Of a stretch of 64,000 nt of DNA, positions 4,576 through 22,118 are shown piece after piece. The stretch is from Myxococcota bacterium (GTDB lineage Bacteria > Myxococcota_A > UBA9160 > UBA4427), in the NCBI GenBank assembly GCA_030748735.1, contig JASMLK010000137.1, forward strand, positions 399-64,398, written 5' to 3'. Position 1 is the first letter of the stretch. Each line of letters starts with the position of its first letter. A program made the position numbers and the translations under genes. Below the pieces are notes generated by a model. It was not told where the DNA came from and did not search any database. It worked only from the letters and a program-made list of their open reading frames with translations.

Positions 4576-4588
4576 CAGGAGGTGTCGC

Positions 4589-5359: not shown

Positions 5360-5396
5360 TCATGTTGACCAGCATTGCGGCGAAGTCGAGGCGACG

Positions 5397-6072: not shown

Positions 6073-8927
6073 TTGGTCCCCCCGCCGCCGAGGGTTTCGC
6101 GCTGCGTCCCAGCAGCAGCGCCGAACTTGGGTTCGACCCGGCGTGGCTGCGGGCTCTCGTCGAACGCACGGGTCCCCTCGCCGTCGTAGACCTCGAAACG
6201 ACGGGTCTCCCGCGCGACCCGCGCGCCGAGGTCCTCGAACTCGGTGTTCTCACATTCGATCTCGCGCAGGACGACCCGGACACCGTGGAGGCGGCCGCGC
6301 TTTCTGGGCTCGTGAGGCCGAGTGAGCCCCTGCCGCCCGACATCCAGCGGATCACCGGGCTGCGAGACCGCGACGTCACCTCGGCCCCGCGGCTCGAAGA
6401 CGTGCGCTACCGCGTCCTCGAAGCCTTGAAGGGGCGCGTCATCATCGCCCACAACGCGGAGTTCGAGCGCACCTTCCTGTCGGGTTTCTTGTCGCCCGAT
6501 TTCAAGCGTGCGGTGTTTCTCGACACCCAGGACCTGCTGGCGCTGACCCACCCCGACGCTTCCGACCTGCGCCTCGCCACCTTCGTGAGAGAACTCCTCG
6601 GGCGTGAAGAACGACATCGCGCGCTGCAGGACGCGGTCGACACGGCGGCCGTACTTGCCGAGGTCGCTGCCGGAGCAGACCGCGGCGAGTCGCGCTACGT
6701 GAATGCCCGCCGGGCACTCGATCGCTACGAACCCGTATCGCCCTGGCTCGAGGTCCTGCGCGGCCCGCTCCTCGTCGACGAAGAACCCGCAGTCGAAGAC
6801 CCGGCCGCGCAGTTCATCGAGATCGGCAGCTGCGACGATGCTCCGGTCCCCTTCGACGAAGATGCGATCGTCGCTGCGCTGCGTGACGAAGCGCGCGGGC
6901 GTCGCCACTTTCCCGGCTACCGCGTGCGCGACGAACAGATCGAACTCGCGCGCTACTTCGTGCGACATCTGCGCGACGGCAAGACGCTGTTGCTCGAGGG
7001 TGGGACCGGTGTTGGGAAGTCACTCGCCTATCTCGCGGCGGCGATTCCGTTTGCGCGTGAGCGTCGCGAGCGCGGTGAACGCGGCCCGGTCGTGATCTCG
7101 ACGCGAACGAAACTCCTGCAGGACCAGCTGCTGCGCAAAGACATCGGCGCCGCGGCGCGCTTTCTCGGCTACCCGCAGTTGCGCGCGCTTTCGATCAAGG
7201 GTCGTGCGAATTACGCCTGTGAAAGAAGGCTCGATCAGGTGCTCGAAGAGGGACGCAACCTCGATGTCTTCCCCGACGAGCGGATGGCCTATGGCGTCCT
7301 GCTCGCGTGCGCGCGCACGCGTCCCCACGCCGAGATCGGCGACCTGCCCGCCGCCTTGATGCGCCGGTATCCGCGATTGCGCGATTTGCGAACACGTTCC
7401 GTTGCTGGGCGCGCCGAACACTGCAGCCGAGAAGCCTGTGCAAAAACACCGGGTTGCCCATTCGGTGCCAGGCGCGCGGCGCTCGCGAAGGCCGACCTCG
7501 TGGTGGCCAACCACGACCTGCTGCTGCGCTGGCCCTCCGACTATCCGCGGTTGTCCCACGTGATCTGCGACGAGGCGCACGAGCTTGCGGGCGTCGCGGA
7601 CAACGTCTACGCCCAGGTGATCCAGCCCGACGAGGTGCTCGAGCGCATCGACGAGATCTTCGGCCGCCCGGGCGATCGCGGCGAGGCGCGACTGCTTCCC
7701 GTCGAGCTGCGAAGACGCGTCGCGGTCGACGTCGTCGACTGGCGCCGCGAGATCGACCTCGCTTTCGCGGGGCTCGCCAAGAGCGTCGCGGGCTTCGCGA
7801 ACGAGTTCGGAGAGCTGCAGCTTCCGACCGAGCCCGACGTTCATCTCCCTGACGCTGCGCGATTCGCGCGCGAAGCGGCGAGTCGTCTCGACGGTGTTGC
7901 GCACGGTGCAGAAGTGCTCGCCGCCGAGCGTTCGAAGGTCGAAGACAGCGACGATCCACTGATGCGGGGGATCGGCGACTTGTACGACGCCGCCGACGGT
8001 TTGCGCATGGCGTTCAGCGACCTGCCGAGCCATGTCTCGTCGTTCGAAGGGCTCGGTCGTTCGGGGTCGCGCTTTCGTCTTTCGATACGACCGGTGAGTC
8101 CCGCGTCTTCGTATCACGCGGGTTTCATGGACGGGCTCGAAAGCTTCGCCGCGGTGTCGGCGAGTTTGTTCGTTGCCGACGATGCGTTCGCGGCGCTCGG
8201 CGAACTCGAAATCGAAGAGCGCGGCGGTGATCTCGTGGAACGCGTGCGCGTCGCAAGCCCGTTTCCCTACCGCGCCAACATGCGGGCCGTTGCGCTTTCG
8301 CGTGTTCGTGACCCGGTCGCCGACACCGCAAGCGTGCTCGAAGTCCTCGCGCGCGAACTCGGCGGACGCACGCTCGGCCTGTTCACCAGCCTGCGCCGCA
8401 TGCATGAAGTCGCGACAGTGCTTTCGAGCGCGCTCGACAACACGGGGATCGAAGTCCTCGCTCCCGTGCGAGCCCACGACGACCCGGCCGCCCTGGTCGA
8501 TCGTTTTGCGAACAGCAGGACGGGGGCCGTCCTGCTCGGCGCCAGGACCTTCTGGCAGGGGCTCGATCTCCCGGGCGATGGCCTGCAGGCGGTGGTGATC
8601 GAAAAACTGCCCTTCGAGGTGCCGACCGAGCTGCGCCGCCGCCGTGAAGAGCGGGTTCGCGAAGCCGGCGAAGACCCGTTTTCCCGCCTGGCCCTGGGCA
8701 AGATGAAGCTCCATCTGAAGCAGATGACCGGCCGCTTGATCCGCAGCGAAACCGATCGCGGAGTCGCGGTGATCGTCGACGCCCGTGCAGACCGCCCCTA
8801 CTTCAGGACGTTGGGAGATGCCTTCCCCGGAGGGACGGAGATTCGGCTGGTGGAGATCGACGGGCTTGCCGGGGTGCTCGAAGAGGTCGGCCTCGGAAGC
8901 CGATCTGCCCCTCGGGGACAGGGGTAA
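6066..8927 (+). CDS. dinG: DinG-family ATP-dependent helicase with N-terminal DnaQ-type 3'-5' exonuclease domain
   Basis: Exonuclease motifs VVDLETTGL and IIAHNAEFERTFL. Walker A GGTGVGKS. DEAH box CDEAHEL. Four-Cys insertion (YACERR, HCSREACAKTPGCPF) as in Fe-S helicases. The only in-frame ATG/GTG/TTG start (6066) lies inside the repeat terminus. Confidence 0.85.
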   Translation: MRVGPPAAEGFALRPSSSAELGFDPAWLRALVERTGPLAVVDLETTGLPRDPRAEVLELGVLTFDLAQDDPDTVEAAALSGLVRPSEPLPPDIQRITGLRDRDVTSAPRLEDVRYRVLEALKGRVIIAHNAEFERTFLSGFLSPDFKRAVFLDTQDLLALTHPDASDLRLATFVRELLGREERHRALQDAVDTAAVLAEVAAGADRGESRYVNARRALDRYEPVSPWLEVLRGPLLVDEEPAVEDPAAQFIEIGSCDDAPVPFDEDAIVAALRDEARGRRHFPGYRVRDEQIELARYFVRHLRDGKTLLLEGGTGVGKSLAYLAAAIPFARERRERGERGPVVISTRTKLLQDQLLRKDIGAAARFLGYPQLRALSIKGRANYACERRLDQVLEEGRNLDVFPDERMAYGVLLACARTRPHAEIGDLPAALMRRYPRLRDLRTRSVAGRAEHCSREACAKTPGCPFGARRAALAKADLVVANHDLLLRWPSDYPRLSHVICDEAHELAGVADNVYAQVIQPDEVLERIDEIFGRPGDRGEARLLPVELRRRVAVDVVDWRREIDLAFAGLAKSVAGFANEFGELQLPTEPDVHLPDAARFAREAASRLDGVAHGAEVLAAERSKVEDSDDPLMRGIGDLYDAADGLRMAFSDLPSHVSSFEGLGRSGSRFRLSIRPVSPASSYHAGFMDGLESFAAVSASLFVADDAFAALGELEIEERGGDLVERVRVASPFPYRANMRAVALSRVRDPVADTASVLEVLARELGGRTLGLFTSLRRMHEVATVLSSALDNTGIEVLAPVRAHDDPAALVDRFANSRTGAVLLGARTFWQGLDLPGDGLQAVVIEKLPFEVPTELRRRREERVREAGEDPFSRLALGKMKLHLKQMTGRLIRSETDRGVAVIVDARADRPYFRTLGDAFPGGTEIRLVEIDGLAGVLEEVGLGSRSAPRGQG

Positions 8928-9289
8928 GCCGAATCTCACATGGTAAGCTTCCGCCTCCCCAGCGACGCGATGCGCTGTCCATGCGCACTGCCTGCGTCCA
9001 CTTTGCTCCCAGCGACCGCCCCCCGCGATCCAACCAGCAAGATCGAACCGCGCAGGGGCGCGACCGAGTTCAAAACCAAAAACACATTGAGAGCGCGGGG
9101 TTTTGCATCACATTTGCAAAGCGACTCGCAGTTCCAAGCTAGCTTGTGCGTTCATTGAGCCACGGTGACGTGGTTGGAGTGGCCCCTCTTGTCGATGCTC
9201 ATGCCGAAGATGAAGTTCGCGCGCGAAAAGGGTGACTCTGAGTATCAGTATCCGGTGAATCCGCGTGCAGCGTCCGAGAGGGCCGCGAC

Positions 9290-10300
9290 TTGAGTCTTCA
9301 ACTCCACGCGGTTGGTCACTACCACCCGTCCAACGAGATCACCAACGCGTTTCTCGAGTCGCTCGACATCGAGACGAGCGATGAGTGGATCATGGATCGG
9401 GTGGGCATTCGTTCGCGCCGCACGGGTCTGCCGCTCGACTACATCGTGCAGACGAAGAATCGCGATCCGCGTGAAGGGATCGAGATTGCCGAAGTGTCGA
9501 ACGCCGAGATGGGCGCGAAAGCGGCCGAAATGGCGCTCGAACGGGCCGGTATCGAGGCAAGCCAGATCGGCATGGTGATCGGCGGCGGTTGTGCGCCCGA
9601 CTATGCGATCCCCGCGGAAGGCGCGCGCGTGGCCGACCTGCTCGGCATCGAAGCACCCGCGTTCGACATCGCTTCCGCGTGCACGAGCTACTTCGCCTCG
9701 GTGCGGACGCTTTCGATGATGGACGCCGCACAGCTTCCGGACTTCATCCTGGTCGTCGTGGCCGAAGCCATGACACGCACGATCGACTACACGGATCGCA
9801 ACTCGGCAGTGCTCTGGGGAGATGGCGCTGCTGCGGCCGTCTTCTCGACCCGCATCCCGGGTGCTGCAACGATCATGGGTAGCGACCTCGCTTCGAATCC
9901 AGCGGGGCAGGGCAAGGTCGTGATTCCGCGACTCGGCTTCTTCGAACAAGAAGGTCGCACGGTGCAGATGTTCGCGATCAAGAAGACGATCGCGGGTTAT
10001 CGCGCTCTCGAAGAGGAACACGGGGAAGACGCCCGACGTCTCAACTTCGTCGGCCACCAGGCGAACCTCCGCATGCTCGAAAACGTTTGCGGCAAGTGCG
10101 ACATTTCCGACGACCGTCATCACTTCAACGTGGACTGGTACGGCAACACCGGAGCTGCGAGCGGGGTTTCGGTCGTGTCGCAGAACTGGGAGAAGTGGAA
10201 ACCCGACGACGACATCGCCTGTGTGGGCGTTGGGTCGGGTCTTACCTGGGGACGATATCTGCTGCGCATGAATGCGGCGCCGGCAGGGGGCGGAGCGTGA
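9290..10300 (+). CDS. fabH: 3-oxoacyl-ACP synthase III (KAS III)
   Basis: TTG start. Cys-His-Asn triad contexts are present: DIASACTSY, FVGHQANLRML, YGNTGAAS. Confidence 0.85.
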   Translation: MSLQLHAVGHYHPSNEITNAFLESLDIETSDEWIMDRVGIRSRRTGLPLDYIVQTKNRDPREGIEIAEVSNAEMGAKAAEMALERAGIEASQIGMVIGGGCAPDYAIPAEGARVADLLGIEAPAFDIASACTSYFASVRTLSMMDAAQLPDFILVVVAEAMTRTIDYTDRNSAVLWGDGAAAAVFSTRIPGAATIMGSDLASNPAGQGKVVIPRLGFFEQEGRTVQMFAIKKTIAGYRALEEEHGEDARRLNFVGHQANLRMLENVCGKCDISDDRHHFNVDWYGNTGAASGVSVVSQNWEKWKPDDDIACVGVGSGLTWGRYLLRMNAAPAGGGA

Positions 10301-10899
10301 CGAGTCAACTGACCTACGACGAATTTCGCGGGCGCGATCACTTCGAGCGCGACGAGCTATTGGCCTTTGCTTATGGACGCCTCGTGAAGGACCCGCCCGA
10401 ATCGTTTCGCGCGCGGCTCCCCACCCCGCCGATGATGATGTTCCACCGCGTGACCGCGATCGAAGCCAACAAGGCGCGCGGTCGCATCGTTGCCGAAGCC
10501 GACGTCGGTCTCGACGATTGGTTCTTTCATTGCCACTTCAATGGCGACCCCGTGCAACCCGGTTGCCTCGGCCTCGACGCCGTATGGCAATTGCTCGGCT
10601 TCTACTGCGTGTGGCGTGGCGGCCCGGGCACCGGCCGTGCGTTGGGGGTCGGCGAAGTCGACTTCATGGGCCAGATCCGCCCCCACGACAAGCTCGTGCG
10701 CTACGAGATCGATGTGCGGCGCTACACCGAACTCGAAACCCAGGGCGCTTCGATGGTGGTCGGCAACGCGACGGTCCTCGTCGACGACCAGGAGATCTAC
10801 CGCATCGAAAAAGCGCGAGTGGGCACCTTCACCGGAATCGCGTATTCCGACTATCCCCTGGCGTCCGAGAACGCGCACGGCGGGAGGAACCAAGAATGA
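10297..10899 (+). CDS. fabA: 3-hydroxyacyl-ACP dehydratase / trans-2-decenoyl-ACP isomerase
   Basis: FabA signature FFHCHFNGDPVQPGCLGLDAVWQLLGFY. GTG 10297 overlaps the fabH stop (GTGA). Confidence 0.9.
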   Translation: MTSQLTYDEFRGRDHFERDELLAFAYGRLVKDPPESFRARLPTPPMMMFHRVTAIEANKARGRIVAEADVGLDDWFFHCHFNGDPVQPGCLGLDAVWQLLGFYCVWRGGPGTGRALGVGEVDFMGQIRPHDKLVRYEIDVRRYTELETQGASMVVGNATVLVDDQEIYRIEKARVGTFTGIAYSDYPLASENAHGGRNQE

Positions 10900-11624
10900 G
10901 CGAAACCCCCGTGGCACTCGTAACGGGTGGTGGGACTGGTATCGGTGCGGCGTGCTGTCGACGTCTCGCGGCCGAAGGCTTTCGTGTTGGCGTCCACTAT
11001 CGCTCGAGCGAGGAGAAGGCGAAGAAGCTCATCGCCGAATTGCCCGACGGCTTCGGTGTGCGGGCGGATCTCTCGGATTCCGAATCGATCGACGCGATGG
11101 TGAAGGAATTGAAGGAAGTCGCAGGCCGCGTAGACACCCTGGTGAACAACGCCGGCTACAACGTCAACGCACCCATGCTGACGATGAGCCTCGACCAATA
11201 CGATTCAGTGGCGTCGGTGGCGCGCGGTACCTGGTACCTGTCGAAGATGATCTTGCGTCGTTTCATGATGCGCAAGGGTACGGGCCGCATCGTGAACATC
11301 TCGAGCGTCGTGGGTCACACCGGGAACCCCGGCCAGGTGCCCTACACGATGGTCAAGGCGGGCCTCGACGCCTTCACGAAGTCGCTCGCGCAAGAACTCG
11401 CGGGCCGCGAGATTCTCGTGAACTCGGTCGCCCCCGGTTTCATCGATACCGACATGACGGAAGAGCTGCCCGAGGAAGTCAAAGAGCAGATCCTGTCCCG
11501 CATCCCGCAAGGTCGCATGGGGAGTGCGGACGAAGTGGCCGACGTCGTGGCGTATCTCGCAACGCGGGCCAGCTACGTCAACGGCACCGTCGTGCATGTG
11601 AATGGAGGAATGTACGGTGGGTGA
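10896..11624 (+). CDS. fabG: SDR-family 3-oxoacyl-ACP reductase
   Basis: TGGGTGIG cofactor motif, NNAG, and the YxxxK context (PYTMVKAG). ATG 10896 overlaps the fabA stop (ATGA) and follows GGGAGGAA. Confidence 0.85.
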   Translation: MSETPVALVTGGGTGIGAACCRRLAAEGFRVGVHYRSSEEKAKKLIAELPDGFGVRADLSDSESIDAMVKELKEVAGRVDTLVNNAGYNVNAPMLTMSLDQYDSVASVARGTWYLSKMILRRFMMRKGTGRIVNISSVVGHTGNPGQVPYTMVKAGLDAFTKSLAQELAGREILVNSVAPGFIDTDMTEELPEEVKEQILSRIPQGRMGSADEVADVVAYLATRASYVNGTVVHVNGGMYGG

Positions 11625-12075
11625 TCTGCTGAGCCGCGAAGACGTGCTCGCCCGGGTTCCCCAACAGGAGCCCTTCCGCTTCATCGACGAGATCGTCGAA
11701 CTCGACGTCGATCACATCGTGGCGCGCTACACGTTTCGCGAAGACCAGGACTTCTACCGCGGCCACTTTCCCGGCAACCCCGTGACGCCCGGTGTGATCT
11801 TGATCGAGACGATGGCCCAGGCGGGCGTCGTGGCGTACGGCATCTATCTCTATGCCGCCGAGACCTCGGCCGAAGAGGTGGAGAAACTCGTTACGGTTTT
11901 CACCGACGCGCAGGTCGACTTTTCCGGCATGGTCAAGCCGGGCGATCGCGTCACGACCACCGCACGCAAGGTCTTCTTTCGCCGCAAGAAGCTTCGCTGC
12001 GAACTGGAAATGACGCTCGATGACGGAACAGTCGTGTGTTCGGGAGTGTTGTCGGGCATGGGAGTTCCACGATGA
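11617..12075 (+). CDS. FabZ-like hot-dog 3-hydroxyacyl-ACP dehydratase
   Basis: Motif FYRGHFPGNPVTPGVILIETMAQ. GTG 11617 lies 7 nt after GGAGGA. An alternative ATG is at 11602. Either start overlaps the fabG 3' end. Confidence 0.8.
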   Translation: MGDLLSREDVLARVPQQEPFRFIDEIVELDVDHIVARYTFREDQDFYRGHFPGNPVTPGVILIETMAQAGVVAYGIYLYAAETSAEEVEKLVTVFTDAQVDFSGMVKPGDRVTTTARKVFFRRKKLRCELEMTLDDGTVVCSGVLSGMGVPR

Positions 12076-13343
12076 GACGAGTCGTCATTACAGGGCTCGG
12101 TGTGATCGCACCGAACGGCAACGGGATCAGCGCCTTCGAAGCCGCGCTGCGCAAGGGACAGTCGGGTCTCCGTTATCAGGCCGTGATGGAAGATTCGAAG
12201 TTCGGTTGCCGTGTGGCGGGCACGCCCGAAGGTGTCGACGAACTCGCCGAAGCGACCTTTCGCGAAGACGAACTGCTCGCGATGAACATGAGCCACCGCT
12301 ACGCGAGCCTCGCGGCCGTCGAAGCGTGGCGCACGGCGGGTTTCGAAGTGCCGGAACTCGACAGCGGTGTCGATTGGGACACCGGCGCGATTCTCGGCAC
12401 CGGGATCGGGGGCATGGATACGACGGCCGAGAAGGTCGTTCCGCTCACGGACCAGAAGAAGATTCGGCGCCTCGGCTCGACCGCGGTCGAGCAGGTGATG
12501 GCCAGCGGCATCTCGGCACGCGTCTCGGGTCAGTTGGCATTGGGCAACCAGGTCACGACGAATTCGAGTGCATGTAGTACCGGGACCGAAGCGATTTCGA
12601 TGGGTGTCGAGCGCATTCGCGCCGGGCTCGCCGAACGGATGATCTGCGGTGGAGCCGAAGCGGCCAGCCACTACATCTGGGCCGGCTTCGATGCGATGCG
12701 CGTTCTGTGCCGCAACTTCAACGACGAACCCGAAAAGGCATCACGCCCGATGAGCGCTTCTGCGGGCGGCTTCATCCCGGGCTCGGGCGCTGGCATGTTG
12801 CTGCTCGAAAGCCTCGAAAGCGCCGAAGCGCGCGGTGCCACGATCCACGCCGAAGTGCTCGGCACGGCACTCAACTGCGGCGGACATCGCACCGGCGGAA
12901 GCATGACGGCGCCGAACCCCGAAAGCGTCGGGCGCTGCATTCAATCGGCACTCGCCGACGCAAAGATCGACGGTTCGCAGGTCGACGCCATCAACGGTCA
13001 CCTGACCGCAACGGGCGCAGATCCCAAGGAAATCGGTTCCTGGTCGCGCGGACTCGATCGCGCACCCGACGACTTCCCGGTCATCACGGCGACGAAATCG
13101 CTGGTGGGGCATGCGCTCGGCGCGGCCGGCGGGATCGAGTCGGTGGCTTCGGTCTTGATGCTGAAGGGCGGCTTCGTTCAGCCCGCCATCAACTGCGAAG
13201 ACGTACACGAAGAGATCCAGCCGTTCGCCGGGTCGATCCCTCACGAGGGGGGCGACATGCCGGACATGAAGATTCTCGCGAAGGCGAGCTTCGGCTTCGG
13301 GGACGTGAACGCCTGCGCGATCTTCAAGAAGTGGGATTCATAG
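12072..13343 (+). CDS. 3-oxoacyl-ACP synthase I/II (FabB/FabF type)
   Basis: Active-site Cys in NSSACSTG, and two His contexts (INGHLTATGADP, KSLVGHALGAAGG). ATG 12072 overlaps the preceding stop (ATGA). Confidence 0.9.
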   Translation: MRRVVITGLGVIAPNGNGISAFEAALRKGQSGLRYQAVMEDSKFGCRVAGTPEGVDELAEATFREDELLAMNMSHRYASLAAVEAWRTAGFEVPELDSGVDWDTGAILGTGIGGMDTTAEKVVPLTDQKKIRRLGSTAVEQVMASGISARVSGQLALGNQVTTNSSACSTGTEAISMGVERIRAGLAERMICGGAEAASHYIWAGFDAMRVLCRNFNDEPEKASRPMSASAGGFIPGSGAGMLLLESLESAEARGATIHAEVLGTALNCGGHRTGGSMTAPNPESVGRCIQSALADAKIDGSQVDAINGHLTATGADPKEIGSWSRGLDRAPDDFPVITATKSLVGHALGAAGGIESVASVLMLKGGFVQPAINCEDVHEEIQPFAGSIPHEGGDMPDMKILAKASFGFGDVNACAIFKKWDS

Positions 13344-13383
13344 CTACAACATTTTGAAGAACGTTCTGCAAAAGGGAGGAATC

Positions 13384-13632
13384 ATGGAACAGTCGGAAGT
13401 GATGGAAGGTGTCGTGAAGATCCTGACGCCGTGGGTCAAGAACGAAGACGCACTCGCGTCGGTCTCGATGGAGACGAACATCCTCGAAGATCTCAAGGTC
13501 AACTCGGCACGTCTGGTAGACGTCGTCATCGCGTTCGAAGATGAATTCGACATCGAGATCGCAGACGAAGACGTCGATTCGGTGAACACGGTTGGCGACG
13601 CGGTCACCCTGATCGCCGCGAAGCTCGGCTGA
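13384..13632 (+). CDS. acyl carrier protein (non-canonical NS instead of DS at the phosphopantetheine site)
   Basis: 82 aa, acidic. Motif LEDLKVNSARLVDVVIAFEDEFDIEI. ATG follows AGGGAGGAA. Confidence 0.85.
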   Translation: MEQSEVMEGVVKILTPWVKNEDALASVSMETNILEDLKVNSARLVDVVIAFEDEFDIEIADEDVDSVNTVGDAVTLIAAKLG

Positions 13633-13669
13633 TCGCAGCCCATCATCGCCAGGGTCGTTGGAGGCTCGC

Positions 13670-14434
13670 GTGAGCAAGGCGGCACCAGCAGGACTTTCCC
13701 GTCGCATGCGTTTCAAGCATGTGTTCCAGCGCGAGGTCGGTCGCTTGATCGTTCCGTTCTGGGTCGGTCCGATCGTCTTCTTCTTGCGTTTCGTGCTCGG
13801 CTATCGCATCGAGAACGCGGCCGAGCTGAGGGCGCGGTACCGGGCGCTGCGCGAGGAGAGCGACGCGCCCCTGCTGATCTGCCCCAACCACCTCACCCTG
13901 ATCGATTCGTTGATCGTCGCCTGGGCGTTGGCGCCGTGGTGGTACTACACGCTCCACTACGACGCGCTCCCGTGGAACACACCCGAACGCAAGAATTTCG
14001 GGCGCACAGCGGTGACGAGGTCTCTCATCTTCGTTGCGAAGTGCATCGCGATATCGCGCGGTGGAGAGCGATCCGAGGTGGGGCAGGTGTTGTCTCGCGT
14101 CACCCACCTGCTGACCCACGGTGAAGTCGCAATGGTGTTCCCCGAAGGCACGCGAAGCCGCACTGGCCGCGTGACGGGAGAATCGATCGCGTGGGGGGTC
14201 GGGCGCATCATCAGTTCGACGTCGGGCTGTCGCGTTCTGTGTGTGTACGCGCGCGGCGACACGCAGGAGAGCTGGGGGAGCATCCCGAACATGGGTGACA
14301 GCTTCCACGTCGAGCTCGACTGCTTCGAGCCCAAGTCCGATGCGAAAGGCGCGCGCCGTTCGCTCGACATCACGAAACAGGTGCTGGGTCGGATCGCGGC
14401 GATGGAAGAGGCCTACTTCGATGGTCGGCAATGA
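13670..14434 (+). CDS. PlsC/LPLAT-family acyltransferase (1-acyl-sn-glycerol-3-phosphate acyltransferase-like)
   Basis: HX4D block (CPNHLTLIDS) and VFPEGTRSRTG block. GTG 13670 lies 5 nt after GGAGG. An alternative TTG is at 13658. Confidence 0.8.
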   Translation: MSKAAPAGLSRRMRFKHVFQREVGRLIVPFWVGPIVFFLRFVLGYRIENAAELRARYRALREESDAPLLICPNHLTLIDSLIVAWALAPWWYYTLHYDALPWNTPERKNFGRTAVTRSLIFVAKCIAISRGGERSEVGQVLSRVTHLLTHGEVAMVFPEGTRSRTGRVTGESIAWGVGRIISSTSGCRVLCVYARGDTQESWGSIPNMGDSFHVELDCFEPKSDAKGARRSLDITKQVLGRIAAMEEAYFDGRQ

Positions 14435-15023
14435 TGTCGTCGACTTGCACGATGTCGACGCCGACATCGCGACCTATCGCGATCGCTTCGACGAGCGGGT
14501 GTTTCGCGACGAAGAGCGCGAGGGGATCGCATGCGACGAACTGGGTCGAAGTACGCGTTGGCAGTACTGGGCCGCCAAAGAGGCCTGTTACAAGGTCGCG
14601 AAACAGGAAGACCCGAGCACCGTCTTTTCCCCCCGAGCCTTCGAGGTCCATTCGGATCTACGCTGGGCCGAAGTCTTCATGCCAGTGCAGCACACGAGTG
14701 GACAGTTCATGGTGATCCTGGAACCCGCTAACGACCGTGTTCACGCGCTTGCGGCCCGAAATACAGGTGACTTCGCGCACGTCGTGCGTGGAGTCGCGCC
14801 CTGTGATCCGCCGGCCCAGGCCGGAAGTGAAGTGAGGAGGCTCGCTCGCGAAGCCGTTGCGAAGCACCTCGACGTGGGCGTCGACCGCGTCGAGATCACG
14901 CGTGACGAGCGGATACCGAAGCTTTGCTTCGACGGCGAACGCCTCGATGCAAGCCTGTCCCTTTCGCATCACGGTCGCTGGGTCGCCTACGCGTGTGACA
15001 TGAAGGGGCTTGCGAATGGCTGA
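14421..15023 (+). CDS. 4'-phosphopantetheinyl transferase
   Basis: GNDVVDL near the N-terminus, WAAKEACYK motif, SLSHHG near the C-terminus. Overlaps the acyltransferase 3' end by 14 nt. Confidence 0.7.
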   Translation: MVGNDVVDLHDVDADIATYRDRFDERVFRDEEREGIACDELGRSTRWQYWAAKEACYKVAKQEDPSTVFSPRAFEVHSDLRWAEVFMPVQHTSGQFMVILEPANDRVHALAARNTGDFAHVVRGVAPCDPPAQAGSEVRRLAREAVAKHLDVGVDRVEITRDERIPKLCFDGERLDASLSLSHHGRWVAYACDMKGLANG

Positions 15024-18000
15024 GATCAAGCGGCTTGCGATCGTGAACCGCGGCGAAGCCGCGATGCGTTGCGTGCGCGCGGTCAAGACCCTGCGCGCCC
15101 ACGAACGAAGCGACCTCGAGGTCGTTGCGCTCTTCACCCAGCCCGATCGCGAAGCGCCCTTCGTTCGCCAGGCCGATCGCGCGATCGAGATTTCCCATCC
15201 AGGCGGCGCCGTTTCGGCGTATCTGGACCACGACGGCGTGCTGGCTGCACTGAAGCAGGTCGAGGCCGACGCGGTCTGGCCCGGCTGGGGCTTCGTCGCC
15301 GAAAGCCCGGACTTCGTCGACCGCCTCGCCGAAGCCGGGATCACCTTCCTCGGCCCCACTGCGGACGCGATGCGTTCGCTGGGAGACAAGATCACCTCGA
15401 AGCTCGCGGCCGAAGAAGCTTCGGTTCCCGTTTCGCCCTGGAGCGGTGGCGAACTCAAGGACGAACACGACGCTCTCGAGCACGCGCGCAGCATCGGCTT
15501 CCCGATCGTCATCAAGGCGACTGCGGGCGGCGGCGGCCGCGGCATCCGCATGATCGATGGCGAAGAGGAACTCGCCGAGGGCTTCCGCTCGGCGGCCGCC
15601 GAAGCCAAGGGCGCGTTCGGTGACGACCGCCTCTTTCTCGAAAAGCGCGTCGAAAACGGACGTCACATCGAGGTGCAGATCGCCGCGGACCTCCACGGCA
15701 ACGTCGTCGCGATCGGTTCGCGCGATTGTTCGGTACAGCGGCGACACCAGAAGGTGCTCGAAGAAGCCCCGCCCCCGGATCTTTCGGCGAGCCTGCGTGG
15801 CGACATCGAAGCGGCGGCGGTTCGCATCGCTTCACACGTCGACTACTCCGGCGTCGGCACCGTCGAATTCCTGCTGCAAGGCGACGCCTTCTACTTCCTC
15901 GAAGTGAACCCGCGCCTGCAGGTCGAGCACGGGATCACGGAAGAGATCACGGGCATCGACCTCGTGCAGCTCCAGGTTCGCATCGCACGCGGGGAGTCGA
16001 TCAAGGGCATCGAAGTGGCGGAACGCGGCGTGGCGATCGAAGCGCGCCTCTGCGCCGAAGACCCCGACCAGGGCTTCCTGCCTTCGCCCGGCAAGATCGT
16101 TCGCTTCGAACCGCCCATGGGCCCACGCGTTCGAATCGATTCGGGCGTGGTCGCGGGCAGTACCGTTCCCCCCGATTTCGATTCCCTGGTCACCAAGTTG
16201 ATTGCGGTCGGCAAGGATCGCGACGACGCGCTCGCGCGTCTCGAGTGCGTCCTCGAAGACCTCGAAGTCGTGATCGAGGGCGGTGCGACGAATCGCGGCT
16301 ACCTGCTCGAAGTGCTCGGGAGCGAGGAATACCGCGGTGGTGCGGTCGACACGGGTTGGCTCGATCGTCGCGAGCGGCAGACTTCTGCGGCGACCGGACC
16401 GCTGGCGCAGGATTCGTTCGTGGCCGCGTCGATCCTCGCCTACCAACGCCGCCGCGCAGCTTCACGGCTCAACTTCTATTCCGACGTTTCGCGTATCGCG
16501 CCGGAACGCATTCCGGCTTCGCGCGGTCAGCAGATCGACGTGAGCTACGAGGGCGAGAGCTATCGGACCACGGTGTACGCCACCGGGGCCTGGCGTTATC
16601 GCGTGCACCTCGACGGTTGCGTGGTCGGCGCATACATGCGCGAAGAAGGTGACAACCGGGCGCGCCTCCAGATCGACGACCGCGTCCGCCGCCTGCTCTA
16701 CGACGCTTCGGACCTCGGGTTGCGCATCGAGATCGACGGCCACCCGTATCGCTATAGCTGGCAGACAGCGGGGCAGGTGCTTTCGGGTACGCCCGCCATG
16801 GTGGTCGCGGTCCACGCGAAGGAAGGCGACACCGTCCAGGCCGGAACCCCGCTCGGCCTCGTCGAAGCGATGAAGATGGAGATCGCCTTCCACGCTCCGG
16901 TGTCGGGTGTCGTGACGGAAGTGCGCGTACGACCCGGACAGCAGGTGAGCGCCGGCGAAGTCCTGCTCGTGATCGATCCCGTGAAGTCCGAAGGGGACGC
17001 GGCCGCGCCGAGCGCACGGCTCGCGCTGCCGGAGCAGGTGGACGCCCTGGCGGTTCTCTTCCAGCCGGATGGAGGCGATCCGCTCGGCACTCCCGACCTG
17101 CTCGCCGCCGATCGCGCGGAACGCCCCGCGCGCCGGGCCGCCATCGACGCCGTGCTCGAGGAAGTGCGCCGTGTCCTGCTCGGCTTCGACGCGAACCCCG
17201 AGCGCAGCGAACGTCTCGTCGCCTTTCTCGAAGCCCCGGTTCCCGAAGGCGTTTCACTCGGCTTCCTCGAACAGCTCTCGCGCATTCGCGACGCGCTTTC
17301 GAGCTTCGTCGACACGGAAGAGTTGTTCATCAACGCGCCGCAGGCTTCGATCTCGGGAGAGGTGGGCCCCTCGAACGCCGCGCGCTTCCGCATGTTCGTA
17401 AGACGCCTTCGCGCGTCGGGCGCGGGCATTGCCGAAGAGTTCCTCGACCTCGTGCGTCGTGCTCTCGCGCACTACGACGTGAAGCAGCTCGAGCCGAGCG
17501 ACGCCCTCGAGCGCGCCGTGCTGCGCTTGTTCGCCTCGCAGGTCGAGAGCGAACTTCGCCTGCGGCTCGTGCTCGCGGTCGTGCATCACCTGACGGCGCT
17601 GGCCGAAGCGGGCATCGAGTTCGACAAGGACGCGAAGCTCTCGGGTACGTTGATCCGAATTACGCGCATGCGGGGCCGGCTCTCGGACACGATTGCGGAC
17701 GCCTCCCAAGAGGCGAACTACGTCTTGTACGAAAAGCGCGAAGTCGACAAGGCCGCCGAACAGCGGTCTCGCGACCTCGAAGCCTGGTTGCGCGAAAGTG
17801 AGAGCAAGCCCACCGAGCCTTCGGCGGGCGTCATGCTCGAAGTGGCCGCCGCGGCCAAGCGCGTCTTCGATCGCGTTGGCAATTGGCTGGCCGCCACCGA
17901 CCCGAGCCTGCGTGAGATCGCACTCGCGGCCCACGTTCAGCGCGTCTACTCGCCCGCCATCCCAGCGGCGCGCAGTTTCATGAAGCGCGACGGCGTTCGG

Positions 18001-20658
18001 GTGCTCTGCTTCGAGTATCCGGACGTGGGGCTCGTGGTTGCGGCAACACCGGGCGAGCGAGACAAGCCCGTCGCTGTCACCAAGGCCCTCATCGCTGCAA
18101 CCGAGCGGCTCATACGAGCCGACCAGAAGCCGGCCCATTCGATGGAGCTTCTGATCTCGATTGGCGAAGGAGACGATCCCGAAGCGGTGGTGGCCGAGGT
18201 CGCGGCCGAAGTCCGCAGCGCCGCACTTCCCTGTCGCCTGGTCGTCGGGCTGATCCTCGATGACGGCGACGATCACTGCAAGACCTTCGAAGCGAAGGGC
18301 GATGAGGGTGTCGGCTTCGTCGAGAACCCCGACTACCTCGAACTCCATCCCGAGACCGCCGAGCGGATTTCGCTGGGGCGACTCGGCAACTTCGAACTCG
18401 AGCGTCTGCCAGGGGAAGAAGGCATCTACGCCTTCTACGGTCGCAGTCGTCAGGAGCCCGGTGACGAGCGCGTCTTCGTGCTCGCCGACGCGCGCGATCG
18501 CACGCCCGGCGCCACGGCCGATGCGGACAAGCGCACCCCGGCGTTCGTTCGCATTTTTCATCGCGCCGCGCGCAGCTTGCGCACGGTGTTGCAGGCGCGC
18601 GACCCGCGCCGCCGCCTGCAGTGGAATCGCATCGCGATCTCGGTCGCGCCGGCGATCCTGCTCGACCGCGAAACGGCGGCCAAGCTTGCCCGGCGCCTGC
18701 TCCCCGCAACGCGCCACCTCGGCCTCGAAAAGGTGACCGTACGACTCTCGCGCCTCGATCCCGAATCGCCAGACACGCCCGCACAGCCCCTCGAAGTGGT
18801 GATCACCGATACCGGTCCGCAGATGGAAATCTCCTGGCGCGAACCTCACGACGAGCCGCTGCAGCCTGCGGGCGACTACGAACGCAAGGTGGTCGCCGCG
18901 CGCAGGCGCCGTCGTGTCTATCCCTACGAGATCATCAGCATGTTGACCTCGGGTGGCGAAGGCCGACTCGCGGACGAGATGACGGAAGACGTCGCGCGCA
19001 CCACCGGCCGCGTGAGTGGTCAGCCGGGTGTGCCGCGCGGGACCTTCGAGGAGTACGACCTCGATGACTCGGTGTCACCGCCGCGAGCAACTCCGATCGA
19101 TCGCGAACCGGGACGCAACACTGCGGCGGTCGTCTTCGGCGTGATCTCGACGCCCACCGACAAGCATCCCGAGGGCATGAAGCGCGTGCTCGCGCTCTCC
19201 GACCCCACTCTGGGGATGGGGGCGTTGTCGATCCCTGAATGCGATCGCCTCGTCGCGGGCCTCGGCCTCGCCGAACGGCTCGGTGTGCCCTTCGAATGGG
19301 TGCCGGTTTCGAGTGGCGCGAAGATCGCCATGGACAGCGGCACCGAAAACCTCGACGCCACCGCGCGTGTCGTGCGACGCATCGTGAACTTCACCCAGGC
19401 GGGTGGTGAGATCAACGTGATCGTGCAGGGCACCAACGTGGGTGCCCAGAGTTACTTCGACGCCCTGGCCACCATGTTGATGCACACCCGGGGTGCGCTC
19501 ATCATGACACCGCGCGCGTCGATGGTGTTGACGGGACGTGCGGCTCTCGAAGCTTCGGGTGCTGTCGCTGCCGAAGACGAAGAAGCGATCGGGGGCTACG
19601 AGCGCATCATGGGCCCCAACGGCCAGGCGCAGTACTACGCGCGCAACCTCGCCGAGGCCTACCAAACCCTCTTCGACTACTACCGCTACACCTATGTCGC
19701 ACCGGGCGAGTCGCGTCCCCGTATGTTCGAAACCGAAGACGCCGACGATCGATCGGTCTGTGATGTCGAGCTCGCGAGCGAAGAGAGCTTCGACTTCAAG
19801 ACCGTGGGCGAGATCTTCGACGACAAAACGAATCCGGGCCGCAAGCGGCCGTTCGACATGCGTTCGGTGATGGCCGCGGTGGTCGATCAGGACGGCGGTC
19901 ACCTCGAACGTTGGCGGCAGATGGTCGGTGCCGAAACCGCGATCGTGTGGGACGCCCATCTCGGTGGTCTCCCCACGACGGTGATCGGCATCGAGAGCCG
20001 CAACATTCCGCGCGACGGCTACCGACCCTTCGACGGACCCGAATCGTGGACCGGCGGAACGCTCTTCCCCTTGTCGTCGAAGAAGGTCGCCCGCGCGATC
20101 AACGCCGCCAGCGGACGACGACCGGTCGTCGTCCTCGCAAACCTGTCGGGCTTCGACGGTTCACCCGAAAGCCTCCGCAAGCTGCAGCTCGAATACGGCG
20201 CCGAAATCGCAACCGCGGTCGTGAACTTCGACGGGCCGCTGCTCTTCCAGGTGATCTCGCGCTACCACGGCGGTGCGTACGTGGTCTTCTCGCAGGAACT
20301 CAACGACTCGATGAAGGCCTTCGCGCTTTCGGGTTCGTATGCATCGGTGATCGGTGGCGGGCCGGCGGCCAAGGTCGTGTTCGCGCGTGACGTTCGCGTG
20401 CGCGTGCTGGCCGACGATCGCGTGAAGCGCTGCGAGCGAGAGCTTCGGGTGCGCGGTACCGAAGAGGCGCGCGAAGCCCTCGATTCGATGATCGAAAACG
20501 TGACCCTCGAAAAGCAGGCCGAACTCGCCAACGACTTCGACGAAGTCCACAGCGTGGAGCGTGCGCGCGAAGTCGGGTCCCTCGAGCGCATCATCGAACC
20601 CGACACGTTGCGCGAAACCCTGATCGGCGAGCTCCGCTCGATGCTGGGCAAGTCGTAG
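15016..20658 (+). CDS. single-chain multidomain acyl-CoA carboxylase (biotin carboxylase - BCCP - long central region - carboxyltransferase)
   Basis: N-terminal ATP-grasp biotin carboxylase (IVNRGEAAMRCVRA, KATAGGGGRGIR, EVNPRLQVEH). Biotinylation motif EAMKME, with the Lys codon at 16873-16875. C-terminal carboxyltransferase-like region from about 19000. ATG 15016 overlaps the PPTase stop by 8 nt. Confidence 0.85.
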   Translation: MAEIKRLAIVNRGEAAMRCVRAVKTLRAHERSDLEVVALFTQPDREAPFVRQADRAIEISHPGGAVSAYLDHDGVLAALKQVEADAVWPGWGFVAESPDFVDRLAEAGITFLGPTADAMRSLGDKITSKLAAEEASVPVSPWSGGELKDEHDALEHARSIGFPIVIKATAGGGGRGIRMIDGEEELAEGFRSAAAEAKGAFGDDRLFLEKRVENGRHIEVQIAADLHGNVVAIGSRDCSVQRRHQKVLEEAPPPDLSASLRGDIEAAAVRIASHVDYSGVGTVEFLLQGDAFYFLEVNPRLQVEHGITEEITGIDLVQLQVRIARGESIKGIEVAERGVAIEARLCAEDPDQGFLPSPGKIVRFEPPMGPRVRIDSGVVAGSTVPPDFDSLVTKLIAVGKDRDDALARLECVLEDLEVVIEGGATNRGYLLEVLGSEEYRGGAVDTGWLDRRERQTSAATGPLAQDSFVAASILAYQRRRAASRLNFYSDVSRIAPERIPASRGQQIDVSYEGESYRTTVYATGAWRYRVHLDGCVVGAYMREEGDNRARLQIDDRVRRLLYDASDLGLRIEIDGHPYRYSWQTAGQVLSGTPAMVVAVHAKEGDTVQAGTPLGLVEAMKMEIAFHAPVSGVVTEVRVRPGQQVSAGEVLLVIDPVKSEGDAAAPSARLALPEQVDALAVLFQPDGGDPLGTPDLLAADRAERPARRAAIDAVLEEVRRVLLGFDANPERSERLVAFLEAPVPEGVSLGFLEQLSRIRDALSSFVDTEELFINAPQASISGEVGPSNAARFRMFVRRLRASGAGIAEEFLDLVRRALAHYDVKQLEPSDALERAVLRLFASQVESELRLRLVLAVVHHLTALAEAGIEFDKDAKLSGTLIRITRMRGRLSDTIADASQEANYVLYEKREVDKAAEQRSRDLEAWLRESESKPTEPSAGVMLEVAAAAKRVFDRVGNWLAATDPSLREIALAAHVQRVYSPAIPAARSFMKRDGVRVLCFEYPDVGLVVAATPGERDKPVAVTKALIAATERLIRADQKPAHSMELLISIGEGDDPEAVVAEVAAEVRSAALPCRLVVGLILDDGDDHCKTFEAKGDEGVGFVENPDYLELHPETAERISLGRLGNFELERLPGEEGIYAFYGRSRQEPGDERVFVLADARDRTPGATADADKRTPAFVRIFHRAARSLRTVLQARDPRRRLQWNRIAISVAPAILLDRETAAKLARRLLPATRHLGLEKVTVRLSRLDPESPDTPAQPLEVVITDTGPQMEISWREPHDEPLQPAGDYERKVVAARRRRRVYPYEIISMLTSGGEGRLADEMTEDVARTTGRVSGQPGVPRGTFEEYDLDDSVSPPRATPIDREPGRNTAAVVFGVISTPTDKHPEGMKRVLALSDPTLGMGALSIPECDRLVAGLGLAERLGVPFEWVPVSSGAKIAMDSGTENLDATARVVRRIVNFTQAGGEINVIVQGTNVGAQSYFDALATMLMHTRGALIMTPRASMVLTGRAALEASGAVAAEDEEAIGGYERIMGPNGQAQYYARNLAEAYQTLFDYYRYTYVAPGESRPRMFETEDADDRSVCDVELASEESFDFKTVGEIFDDKTNPGRKRPFDMRSVMAAVVDQDGGHLERWRQMVGAETAIVWDAHLGGLPTTVIGIESRNIPRDGYRPFDGPESWTGGTLFPLSSKKVARAINAASGRRPVVVLANLSGFDGSPESLRKLQLEYGAEIATAVVNFDGPLLFQVISRYHGGAYVVFSQELNDSMKAFALSGSYASVIGGGPAAKVVFARDVRVRVLADDRVKRCERELRVRGTEEAREALDSMIENVTLEKQAELANDFDEVHSVERAREVGSLERIIEPDTLRETLIGELRSMLGKS

Positions 20659-20708
20659 TCGCAAGGCTGATCGCGGGTCGTCCGACATCGTCCCGCTGGA
20701 GTGCGTGT

Positions 20709-21107
20709 ATGTCGCAGGACGATCGCGAACGAGAACCCGACGTCATTCTTCTCGAAGGCATCGAGGTGCCCTCGGCCCTCGGTGTGAGCGCAGCCGAACG
20801 CCAGATGCGGCGCCCTGTGCGACTCGATCTCGAATTGGGGTTCGACCTCACGGCGGCCGGCCGTTCGGACGATCTCGCCCACACGATCGACTACGGTGAG
20901 GTGTACGAAGTCGTCGAAAAGGTCGCGGGCACGGGAGAGCACGAGTTGGTCGAGGCGCTGGGGCAGCGCATCGCCGATGCGCTCTTCGATCGTTTCGCGA
21001 TCGACTTCGTGAAACTCACGGTGCGCAAGGCGCGGCCGATCGCGGGTGTGCTCGACTGGACGGGTGTGAGGATCACAAGGATGCGCGGCGATCGCGGGAC
21101 GGCTTGA
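20709..21107 (+). CDS. folB: dihydroneopterin aldolase
   Basis: Motif GVSAAERQMRRPVRLDLEL...TIDYGEVY...LVEALGQRIADAL, typical of FolB. 132 aa. Confidence 0.8.
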   Translation: MSQDDREREPDVILLEGIEVPSALGVSAAERQMRRPVRLDLELGFDLTAAGRSDDLAHTIDYGEVYEVVEKVAGTGEHELVEALGQRIADALFDRFAIDFVKLTVRKARPIAGVLDWTGVRITRMRGDRGTA

Positions 21108-21146
21108 TCACCGGTCGGCGCTGGCGCGTTCTGGGGGCAGGGCGAA

Positions 21147-22118
21147 GTGGAGCGAATCGTCGACCGCATGATGGCCGCCATGCTGCGCGGCACACTCGAA
21201 GTGGTCGGTCGCCTGCCCGCGGACTTCGCCCGCGTGTTCTGCGCGACGCTGGCTCGGGGCTACGCGGTGCTCGGCGGGCCCCGTGTCGATGATGCGCGCA
21301 CCAACCTCGCGCTTGCCTTTCCCGAAGTCTCGCAGTCCGCTCGGCAAAAGATCCTGATCGCGAGCTTCGCGAACCTCGGTCGTAGCTTCGCCGAGCTGGC
21401 GCGCATGGTTGCAGCGTCCGACCGTGCGGGGTTCGAACGCGTGCGCATCGAGGGTCGCGAACACCTCGAAGCGCTCGAGCGAGCGCGGGGCAAGGGTGGT
21501 GCGTTGGTGGTGACCGCGCACTTCGGGTCGTGGGAGTTCTGCGCGGCCGCACTCGCCCATCACGGTCTTCCGGTGAGCGTGGTCCAGCACCCGCGGCGCA
21601 ACGTCGAAGTCGATCGCGTCGTGAATGGCTGGCGAGAAGCGAACGGTCTCGAAACGCTCTCGATCGGGCGGGCGGCGCTCGGTGTCTTTCGCGCCCTGGG
21701 ACGAGGTCGTTACGTCGCGCTGCTTCTCGACCAGAACGCCAGTGAGGAAGAGGGCATCTACGCTCCCTTCTTCGGAACCCCGGCCTGTACGCGCAGCGGC
21801 CCCGCGCAACTCGCCATGACGCGCGATGCGCCCGTCGTCCCCGTCTTCTTCTTTCGCGAGGGAACGAGCGGCAATCACACGGCCCGCATCGGCGCTCCCA
21901 TCGAAGTCGAACCCGAAGGGGAGGCGCCCGACAAGGCGCTCGCGGTGAACGTCGAGCGGATGAACGCCGCCATCGAAGCGGCGATTCGCCAAGCGCCCGA
22001 GCAGTGGATCTGGACCCACCGTCGCTTCAAGACACGGCCACGGGGGGCAGCGTCGATCTACCCCCCGCGCCGCGGTCTGCTACGGCGCTTTCGCCACGCC
22101 TTGCGGGGCGCGCGCTGA
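21147..22118 (+). CDS. LpxL/HtrB-family lipid A (Kdo2-lipid IVA) late acyltransferase-like protein
   Basis: Motif VVTAHFGSWEF (HX4E/D block of the LpxL family), LLDQN, PEQWIWTHRRFK tail. GTG start. Confidence 0.75.
   Translation: MERIVDRMMAAMLRGTLEVVGRLPADFARVFCATLARGYAVLGGPRVDDARTNLALAFPEVSQSARQKILIASFANLGRSFAELARMVAASDRAGFERVRIEGREHLEALERARGKGGALVVTAHFGSWEFCAAALAHHGLPVSVVQHPRRNVEVDRVVNGWREANGLETLSIGRAALGVFRALGRGRYVALLLDQNASEEEGIYAPFFGTPACTRSGPAQLAMTRDAPVVPVFFFREGTSGNHTARIGAPIEVEPEGEAPDKALAVNVERMNAAIEAAIRQAPEQWIWTHRRFKTRPRGAASIYPPRRGLLRRFRHALRGAR

Follow-up and report, generated by a model that had tools for sequence, protein, structure and literature searches.

In mycobacteria, the genes of the type II fatty acid synthase (FAS-II) form the operon fabD-acpM-kasA-kasB-accD6. 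Type II polyketide synthase clusters constitute a precedent of a dedicated acyl carrier protein (ACP) and ketosynthase (KS) that borrow FabD and the reductases. Another is found in rhizobia, where the very-long-chain fatty acid of lipid A is made by the cluster acpXL-fabZXL-fabF2XL-fabF1XL-(adhA2XL)-lpxXL (PMC5613085). Regarding acetyl-CoA carboxylases (ACC), SACE_4237 of the actinobacterium Saccharopolyspora erythraea is a homodimeric multidomain "eukaryote-like" enzyme and the essential housekeeping ACC of this organism (PMC6491548). Here we describe a fatty acid synthase (FAS)-like operon located at positions 9290-20658 of a 64-kb stretch of DNA (65% G+C; hereafter the window) from a metagenome-assembled genome (MAG) of an uncultured member of the Myxococcota. 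The genus UBA4427 is placed in class UBA9160 ("Vahlivitia") of the GTDB phylum Myxococcota_A by a 2026 preprint.

On balance, the available evidence favours the view that this operon encodes a lineage-specific, dedicated type II FAS of the UBA9160/UBA4427 Myxococcota, which would probably operate beside a canonical FAS and deliver acyl chains to lipids through clade-specific acyltransferases. The operon consists of nine genes on the + strand, to which functions were assigned with Pfam and NCBIfam models; the genes and functions listed in the initial annotation, which was made from the sequence alone, were all recovered.

9290-10300, + strand: KASIII, a FabH-like initiating ketosynthase of 336 aa (PF08545 and PF08541)
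10297-10899, + strand: FabA-type 3-hydroxyacyl-ACP dehydratase / trans-2,cis-3 isomerase, 200 aa (NF003509)
10896-11624, + strand: FabG-like 3-ketoacyl-ACP reductase (KR) of the short-chain dehydrogenase/reductase (SDR) type, 242 aa (adh_short_C2, 197 bits)
11617-12075 (or from 11602), + strand: FabZ-like dehydratase, 152 aa (157 aa from the ATG at 11602; PF07977)
12072-13343, + strand: FabB/FabF-like elongating KS, 423 aa (PF00109 and PF02801)
13384-13632, + strand: ACP, 82 aa (PF00550)
13706-14434, + strand: acyltransferase (AT) of the PlsC/GPAT superfamily, 242 aa (PF01553, 47 bits)
14421-15023, + strand: phosphopantetheinyl transferase (PPTase), 200 aa (PF01648)
15016-20658, + strand: single-chain eukaryote-type ACC, 1880 aa (Pfam biotin carboxylase (BC), biotin carboxyl carrier protein (BCCP), weak ACC_central and carboxyltransferase (CT) domains)

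The divergence of the cluster proteins from the canonical families is a first line of evidence for this interpretation. When scored against the equivalog models of NCBIfam, the proteins remained far below the cut-offs for FabH (TIGR00747, 175 bits against 292), FabG (TIGR01830, 252 against 298), FabZ (TIGR01750, 75 against 155), FabF (TIGR03150, 288 against 494), ACP (TIGR00517, 47 against 70), PlsC (TIGR00530, 27 against 103) and AcpS (TIGR00516, 21 against 60); hence none of the fabH, fabG, fabZ, fabF, acpP and acpS candidates is assigned to its canonical housekeeping family. FabA is the sole cluster protein above an equivalog cut-off (NF003509, 207 bits against 124), and it lies under that of a second model (TIGR01749, 176 against 238). 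As controls, other proteins of the window passed the corresponding thresholds, namely AroC (475/321), TyrS (353/114), ThiC (606/410), FolB (85/72) and SfsA (225/126), with DnaA being borderline. Since five of the six housekeeping neighbours pass while the FAS proteins do not, the divergence is specific to the cluster and not organism-wide.

In spite of this divergence the active-site residues are intact in all cluster enzymes, as evidenced by motif reading and orthologue alignments. The catalytic residues of both ketosynthases, reported initially as intact, are indeed present, with Cys-His-Asn in KASIII and Cys-His-His in the KS, and they are kept in 62-67 orthologues. The KASIII triad is contained in the motifs SACTS, HQAN and GNTGAA, conserved in 62 orthologues, in a protein that shares 29% identity with E. 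coli FabH. The KR (43% identical to E. coli FabG) displays the Y-x3-K signature, with a YTMVK-type motif in 49 out of 49 orthologues. The active-site stretch of FabA, CHFNGDPVQPGCLGLDA, contains the His and Asp residues, and the motif CHF..DPVQPGCLG.D is kept across the clade with Asp and not the Glu of FabZ; together with the equivalog score, this places the protein among the bifunctional dehydratases/isomerases, with a predicted isomerase activity. In the FabZ-like protein the corresponding stretch, GHFPGNPVTPGVILIE, carries His and Glu, and GHFPGNP.TPGV...E is conserved among the orthologues. The KS scored 245 bits with the FabB model (cut-off 630) and is equally distant from FabF and FabB structures (~184 bits each). 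Discrete KS and KASIII proteins, a Y-x3-K KR and hot-dog dehydratases with His plus Glu or Asp are features of a type II FAS; enoyl-ACP reductase (ER) and FabD are the components absent from the window. A separate observation on the KS concerns the gating loop near its C-terminus, where FGFGD is found in place of the normally invariant GFGG (FGFGDVN in 67 of 67 orthologues).

The ACP and the two enzymes encoded after it depart further from their housekeeping counterparts. The attachment site of the ACP reads LKVNSARL, so that, as had been pointed out, NS replaces DS while the Ser itself is kept; VNSARLVDV is invariant in 70 orthologues, and Asn and Arg occupy the positions equivalent to D35 and D38 of E. 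coli AcpP, with which the protein shares 37% identity. Thus, the Asp-Ser-Leu (DSL) site and the acidic start of helix II that identify a housekeeping AcpP are not found in the cluster ACP. The PPTase is composed of one AcpS-like lobe, with the catalytic motifs GNDVVD and WAAKEA in the AcpS order, and a second lobe. A sequence search of the PDB with this protein gave no match, and its AlphaFold model (pLDDT 94) retrieved E. coli AcpS as the best Foldseek hit (5xuh, TM 0.69 over 119 columns). As judged from the model, the PPTase corresponds neither to canonical AcpS nor to canonical Sfp, and its family is essentially confined to the clade (465 hits among 5.8 billion proteins). The AT contains the motifs HX4D (NHLTLID) and PEGxR (FPEGTR) and a hydrophobic N-terminus; its best NCBIfam match is an Aas-type acyl-ACP:phospholipid acyltransferase, whereas comparison of the family profile with the PDB produced a marginal match to GPAT1 only. 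This family is likewise clade-restricted, with 951 members at E<=1e-5 among the same 5.8 billion proteins, and the enzyme is presumed to off-load the chain from acyl-ACP to a lipid acceptor. An ACP with an NS site and an altered recognition helix, accompanied by its own PPTase and AT, could serve as a ready-made orthogonal acyl-carrier system for engineering.

To assess the distribution of the operon, one genome per GTDB species was scanned with an alignment of the ACC central region, which yielded 119 relatives; of their loci, the 80 best were retrieved. Gene order was determined by tblastn with the window proteins in the 61 species loci with complete upstream sequence, and gene linkage was counted over 68 loci. 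KASIII, the FabZ-like dehydratase, KS, ACP, AT and ACC occur in the same order in 55 of the 61 loci; a synteny search for the nine-gene order had been proposed in the initial annotation, and the exact set of nine was recovered in 11. The relatives are without exception MAGs, with labels such as Myxococcota or Deltaproteobacteria (UBA4427, TMED72 and TMED88 among them), and no cultured organism was found. The 61 loci were composed as follows.

26 loci: the nine genes of the window and, immediately before KASIII, an extra SDR
11 loci: exactly the nine genes of the window
9 loci: extra SDR present, KR absent
3 loci: SDR, KR and PPTase all absent
2 loci: SDR and PPTase absent
3 loci: FabA absent (one of them also without KR)
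1 locus: PPTase matched only in part
4 loci: ACC alone, in unrelated contexts
1 locus (L049): KR and ACC only, in otherwise conserved synteny
1 locus (L075): KASIII and ACC only

The ACP is the most conserved protein, with a median identity of 85% to that of the window, followed by the KR (78%), the FabZ-like dehydratase (75%), KS (73%), FabA (67%), ACC and KASIII (60% each), AT (52%), the LpxL-type protein encoded downstream (41%) and the PPTase (38%). The same order in dozens of species at median protein identities of 38-85% is far beyond what chance would produce. Of the 55 related clusters, 13 lack KR, 6 lack PPTase and 3 lack FabA. In L049 (CAWAPH010000008.1, 3.5-20.5 kb) the flanks are kept, comprising the DinG-like gene, ACC, folB, a GGDEF gene, a radical-SAM pair and dnaA; the DinG-ACC interval contains just two SDR genes, KASIII through PPTase being gone, which represents a natural deletion or relocation. 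A literature search provided nothing on this gene order or on a multidomain ACC in Myxococcota, and no fab or KEGG fatty-acid entries are present in the supplementary tables of a paper covering this class. The operon represents a conserved module for lipid synthesis, as yet uncharacterised, and a marker of a large uncultured lineage from marine, sediment, soil and wastewater environments.

The same conservation has to be weighed against the idea of a second, dedicated system. It is possible, though less likely, that the cluster is the main or only housekeeping FAS of the class. In that case it would be an unusually consolidated lipid super-operon (fabL-fabH-fabA-fabG-fabZ-fabB/F-acpP-plsC-acpS-acc-lpxL), its proteins having diverged by drift from the canonical ones, with FabD and, in some lineages, FabG, FabI or AcpS being encoded elsewhere. 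The presence of the cluster in nearly all the species loci, its fixed position between the DinG-like gene and dnaA, the latter a few kb away, and the strong purifying selection on ACP, KR and KS are what a sole essential FAS would also display. Moreover, every FAS step except FabD is encoded in the operon of 26 species, functions typical of primary metabolism are included (ACC, a PlsC-like enzyme, a lobe resembling AcpS and the embedded folB), and the ACC occurs alone in other Myxococcota MAGs and is thus probably a general ACC, its relative SACE_4237 being an essential housekeeping enzyme (PMC6491548). All of these observations count against a dedicated system, as does the fact that no canonical fabD, acpP and fabF set was seen in the window or in the ~20-kb loci, so that the coexistence of a canonical FAS, the central premise, is something we infer. 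There is also a tension in that a truly orthogonal ACP surface would still have to be accepted by a borrowed FabD, FabG or FabI. Conversely, divergence affects the FAS proteins and not the other housekeeping proteins of the window, the ACP has replaced the near-universal DSL of housekeeping AcpP, and a sole essential pathway is unlikely to have shed KR, ER, PPTase or FabA repeatedly; the absence of the core from L049, despite the kept flanks and ACC, likewise supports a dedicated system, relocation being possible. Should the cluster prove to be the sole FAS, the assumption that DSL-type AcpP and FabD linkage are universal would be called into question.

The lack of FabD and of an ER within the operon, noted at the outset, was corroborated by tblastn across the 64-kb window and by Pfam scans of the cluster and the main flanking ORFs. 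No tblastn hit with E. coli FabD was obtained at E<=1e-3 in the window or in any of 85 related loci, and no Acyl_transf_1 domain appeared in the Pfam scans; no ER-type SDR was detected in the window by tblastn, nor a remnant of the gene in the 363-nt spacer between DinG and KASIII. The situation of the two enzymes differs in the relatives. A FabL-like ER is encoded directly upstream of KASIII in 39 of 55 related clusters: the best NCBIfam hit of this extra SDR is FabL (109 bits, cut-off 328), its second-best PDB hit is B. subtilis FabL, and the Y-x6-K spacing of FabI/FabL enoyl reductases is present in 40 out of 40 orthologues. From this it follows that the pathway includes enoyl reduction. 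As the ER gene is found in the most divergent subgroups, its absence here is best read, from these comparisons, as a loss from the operon in the sublineage of the window and not as a feature of the pathway. The unsaturated or hydroxylated product that had been postulated for want of a reductase is consequently unsupported, FabA and FabZ being the ordinary pair of E. coli, and the description of the operon as self-contained does not hold given that FabD is never part of it (0 of 85 loci). What does stand of that earlier interpretation, indirectly, is the dedicated and non-canonical nature of the system, in view of the score divergence, the ACP helix, the clade-restricted AT and PPTase and the steps required in trans. 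Since FabD is absent from all 85 loci and KR, ER, PPTase or FabA are absent from the operon in some lineages, other loci must supply these steps; the genes must exist elsewhere in the genome, and a canonical fab set would supply them.

A more radical explanation for the missing FabD is a FabD-independent synthase, in which KASIII would act as a transacylase or the carboxyltransferase of ACC would act on ACP-bound acetyl. The absence of FabD from 85 of 85 loci, when nearly all other functions including ACC and PPTase are in the operon, is compatible with this proposal, and so is the position of ACC, whose gene closes the core in every case and is translationally coupled to that of the PPTase. 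We consider it very unlikely: there is no positive evidence for it, the KASIII triad is the ordinary Cys-His-Asn, the CT and central domains of the ACC are of the ordinary eukaryote type, the ACC occurs alone in genomes devoid of the cluster, and FabD borrowing is the known rule for accessory ACP systems. It is likewise unlikely, if a little less so, that the whole bacterial class makes its membrane lipids by this operon alone, with malonyl loading or carboxylation through an undescribed route (a KASIII homologue or ACP-bound acetyl); if true, the class would depend on an ACP without the universal DSL, a two-lobed PPTase of its own and a eukaryote-type single-chain ACC, with no FabD partner encoded in the operon.

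Three further features adjoining the operon bear on its limits and on the fate of its product.

8928-9289, + strand: intergenic spacer between the DinG-like gene and KASIII, a 363-nt gap
20709-21107, + strand: folB, dihydroneopterin aldolase (PF02152; TIGR00525, 85 bits, cut-off 72)
21147-22118, + strand: LpxL-family acyltransferase (lipid A-type secondary acyltransferase), 323 aa (PF03279, 181 bits)

Within the operon, six of the eight junctions overlap, as described initially and verified by reading the sequence: GTGA at 10297-10300, ATGA at 10896-10899 and at 12072-12075, 14 nt between AT and PPTase (14421-14434), 8 nt between PPTase and ACC (15016-15023), and 23 nt between KR and the FabZ-like gene, or 8 nt if the GTG at 11617, with GGAGGA 6 nt ahead of it, is the start. 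Gaps occur only around the ACP gene (40 nt after KS, 73 nt before AT), which has its own ribosome-binding site, GGGAGGA. Independent gene calls from three further assemblies of this DNA agree on the starts of ACP (13384), AT (13706) and ACC (15016). The 8928-9289 spacer is presumed to be the promoter region; it contains no match to the sigma-70 consensus, and a scan of 8800-22400 for promoter and terminator consensus sequences gave nothing above shuffled controls. Recent horizontal transfer of the cluster was considered and is not supported, the G+C and third-position G+C contents being the same as those of the flanks. On one side of the lipid locus lies a DinG-like helicase (6066-8927, + strand) with an N-terminal RNase T-type exonuclease domain, and on the other a long DnaA of 614 aa (25768-27612, - strand), which places the operon within a few kb of dnaA; this bracketing is also present in two long contigs, one of which is a complete 6.25-Mb chromosome.

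The LpxL-type gene indicated in the initial annotation is present where stated, and the interval between ACC and this gene contains folB. The LpxL-type gene probably closes the transcription unit, its product providing another outlet for acyl-ACP; folB is probably a passenger housekeeping gene outside the lipid pathway. An LpxL-type gene is found downstream of ACC on the same strand in 44 of the 68 loci, and in 39 of those the gap is below ~640 nt, with or without folB. In its own right, folB stands between ACC and the LpxL-type gene in part of the clade (21 of the 68 loci) and not at that position in the rest.

The linkage to an LpxL-family gene raises the question of whether the dedicated FAS is directed to lipid A, in the manner of the rhizobial AcpXL/LpxXL system, supplying a special (e.g. 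very long or unsaturated) chain. The acpXL cluster indeed shares the logic of the operon, with a dedicated ACP, a FabZ-like dehydratase, FabF paralogues and LpxXL and with no FabD, FabG or FabI (PMC5613085). Nonetheless, the LpxL-type gene does not adjoin the cluster in about one third of the species, including the entire most divergent group, whereas the PlsC-type AT is invariant. Furthermore, the operon has one KS and not two, and KASIII and FabA point to de novo synthesis that includes a cis-unsaturation, and not to mere elongation. With TIGR02207 the LpxL-type protein scored 137 bits (cut-off 298), and its gene may be merely a housekeeping copy. This sub-case of the dedicated system is thus rather unlikely, and the resemblance to acpXL/LpxXL, in which two FabF proteins are a defining element, is an analogy and not membership.

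The acyltransferases are also relevant to a different kind of pathway, since PlsC-type and LpxL-type enzymes are found in the clusters for aryl-polyene and flexirubin pigments as well. ApeI-like and ApeP-like Pfam hits are on record for the FabZ-like protein, and the KR matches the flexirubin FlxB model with 195 bits, far under its cut-off of 340. A pigment or secondary-metabolite cluster of this kind is most improbable, since no KS/chain-length-factor pair, aryl-activating enzyme, ammonia lyase, thioesterase or exporter was found in the window or in the related loci, and a true FabA together with an ER in most clusters points to reduced chains. The aryl-polyene/flexirubin assignment was accordingly rejected on the basis of the single KS, the lack of starter activation and the ER in most orthologous clusters.

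The "giant carboxylase" of the initial annotation is confirmed as a carboxylase and can be refined to a eukaryote-type ACC. A protein with 100% identity to it is deposited at NCBI, from a MAG contig of 78.5 kb. Its domains are arranged as BC (~15016-16395), BCCP (~16801-16983, with the biotinylation motif EAMKM, present in 68 of 77 orthologue segments), a central region (~17083-18975) and CT (~19180-20640). While the BC domain is nearest to bacterial biotin carboxylases and not to eukaryotic ACC, the CT domain and the C-terminal half of the middle region (680 residues) produce sequence matches, although weak, solely with eukaryotic (fungal) ACC structures. An AlphaFold model of the central region (residues 690-1320, pLDDT 77) was compared with the PDB by Foldseek, and the top 30 matches were all ACC central domains (AC1-AC5) of yeast, Chaetomium or human, the best being 5csa (E 1e-19, ~670 aligned columns); the TM-scores of 0.4-0.5 are moderate, which is to be expected of a domain with several lobes. 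Based on the CT matches, the fold of the central domain in the model and the EAMKM motif, in the order BC-BCCP-central-CT, the carboxylase is assigned as a eukaryote-type single-chain ACC, and because its CT is nearest to that of eukaryotic ACC it is predicted to carboxylate acetyl-CoA to malonyl-CoA. An alternative assignment as LCC was discarded, as LCC lacks the central domain and has another domain order (PMC6491548).

Relatives of the central-plus-CT part form 616 representative clusters at E<=1e-30, most of them of 1750-1900 aa and from uncultured bacteria. In four loci (L073, L081, L084 and L085, from MAGs labelled Polyangiaceae) the ACC stands alone, at ~7.9-13.5 kb of each; these proteins of 1850-1960 aa are 53-55% identical to the ACC of the window, and their neighbours are unrelated genes (phosphate-binding protein, two-component regulators, methyltransferase and AraC regulator), with no fab genes in the flanks of the four species. 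The occurrence of the ACC alone in other MAGs indicates that it is older or wider than the FAS cluster. Altogether, a eukaryote-type single-chain ACC with a genuine central domain is encoded in Myxococcota-related bacteria, well outside the Actinobacteria, physically coupled to a FAS operon, and represents a marker encoded by at least 119 species-level genomes.

For the dedicated FAS favoured here, the analysis established gene content, motifs, folds and conservation; we infer all enzymatic activities, the enzymes acting in trans, the product and its acceptors, and the following sequence of events can be hypothesized. The single-chain ACC, whose domains are all present, would make malonyl-CoA, and a FabD encoded elsewhere would load the malonyl group onto the NS-type ACP, converted to its holo form by the AcpS-like PPTase of the cluster. 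KASIII would begin chains from an acyl-CoA primer, the FabB/F-like KS would elongate them, and the FabG-like KR and the FabZ-like dehydratase would run the cycle, with a cis double bond introduced by FabA at the C10 stage, as in E. coli. Enoyl reduction would be carried out by the FabL-like ER or, in the sublineage of the window, by an ER from elsewhere in the genome. The resulting saturated or cis-monounsaturated acyl-ACP would then be off-loaded onto membrane lipid acceptors by the PlsC-superfamily AT, and probably also by the LpxL-type acyltransferase, possibly to lipid A. The altered helix of the ACP, invariant in the clade, and the private PPTase would hold this acyl pool apart from the housekeeping pool.

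Other features of the window deserve mention. A cobalamin riboswitch (RF00174, 73 bits, gathering threshold 31.5) is located at 23275-23462 on the - strand. The gene that it immediately precedes (22080-22970, - strand) encodes a DUF4465 protein with a PEP-CTERM anchor, an arrangement that suggests a surface protein whose expression is controlled by B12. Upstream of the DinG-like gene, the region 1684-5717 (+ strand) encodes a TPP-dependent enzyme followed by two ferritin-like di-iron proteins, with weak hits to PaaA/PaaC, phenol hydroxylase and aldehyde decarbonylase, and a small ORF; this group does not adjoin the cluster in the complete genome L004. An ORF of 134 aa at 32267-32671 (- strand), which comprises only the last 60 positions of a CLC chloride-channel domain and a TrkA_C domain, is probably a truncated remnant or a frameshifted gene.

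When compared with known systems, the operon resembles the dissociated FAS II of E. coli, with its FabA/FabB anaerobic branch, in having discrete KASIII, KR, FabZ, FabA, KS and ACP proteins with intact motifs. Unlike in E. coli, the components other than FabA are 29-43% identical and below the equivalog cut-offs, one KS stands for both FabB and FabF, the ACP is of the NS type, the locus is devoid of FabD, and the genes are joined in one operon with ACC, PPTase and acyltransferases. With the rhizobial acpXL cluster it shares a dedicated ACP, a private dehydratase and KS, an LpxL-family gene at the end and the borrowing of FabD and, in some species here, of reductases; it differs in having KASIII, FabA, a single KS, a PlsC-type AT, a PPTase and a complete ACC, and in that the LpxL-type gene is not always linked. 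The mycobacterial FAS-II is likewise a second FAS that has an ACP and ketosynthases of its own, and its operon includes a carboxylase component to supply malonyl-CoA. That operon, however, contains FabD and only the carboxyltransferase subunit, whereas the present one lacks FabD and encodes the entire ACC as a single chain of 1880 aa; mycobacteria are an unrelated taxon, and the proteins of the two systems are not closely related. As for SACE_4237, beside which the ACC can be set by description, both are bacterial single chains of ~200 kDa that combine BC and CT domains with a central region which, these cases aside, is known from eukaryotic ACC only; in this case the phylum is another, the gene lies inside a FAS operon and the activity is predicted. 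Given the scores below the equivalog cut-offs and the different gene sets, the operon is not a member of the E. coli, acpXL or mycobacterial systems. It stands out, in a lineage without a cultured member, as a class-wide FAS-like operon that combines an atypical ACP, clade-specific PPTase and AT families and a eukaryote-type ACC.

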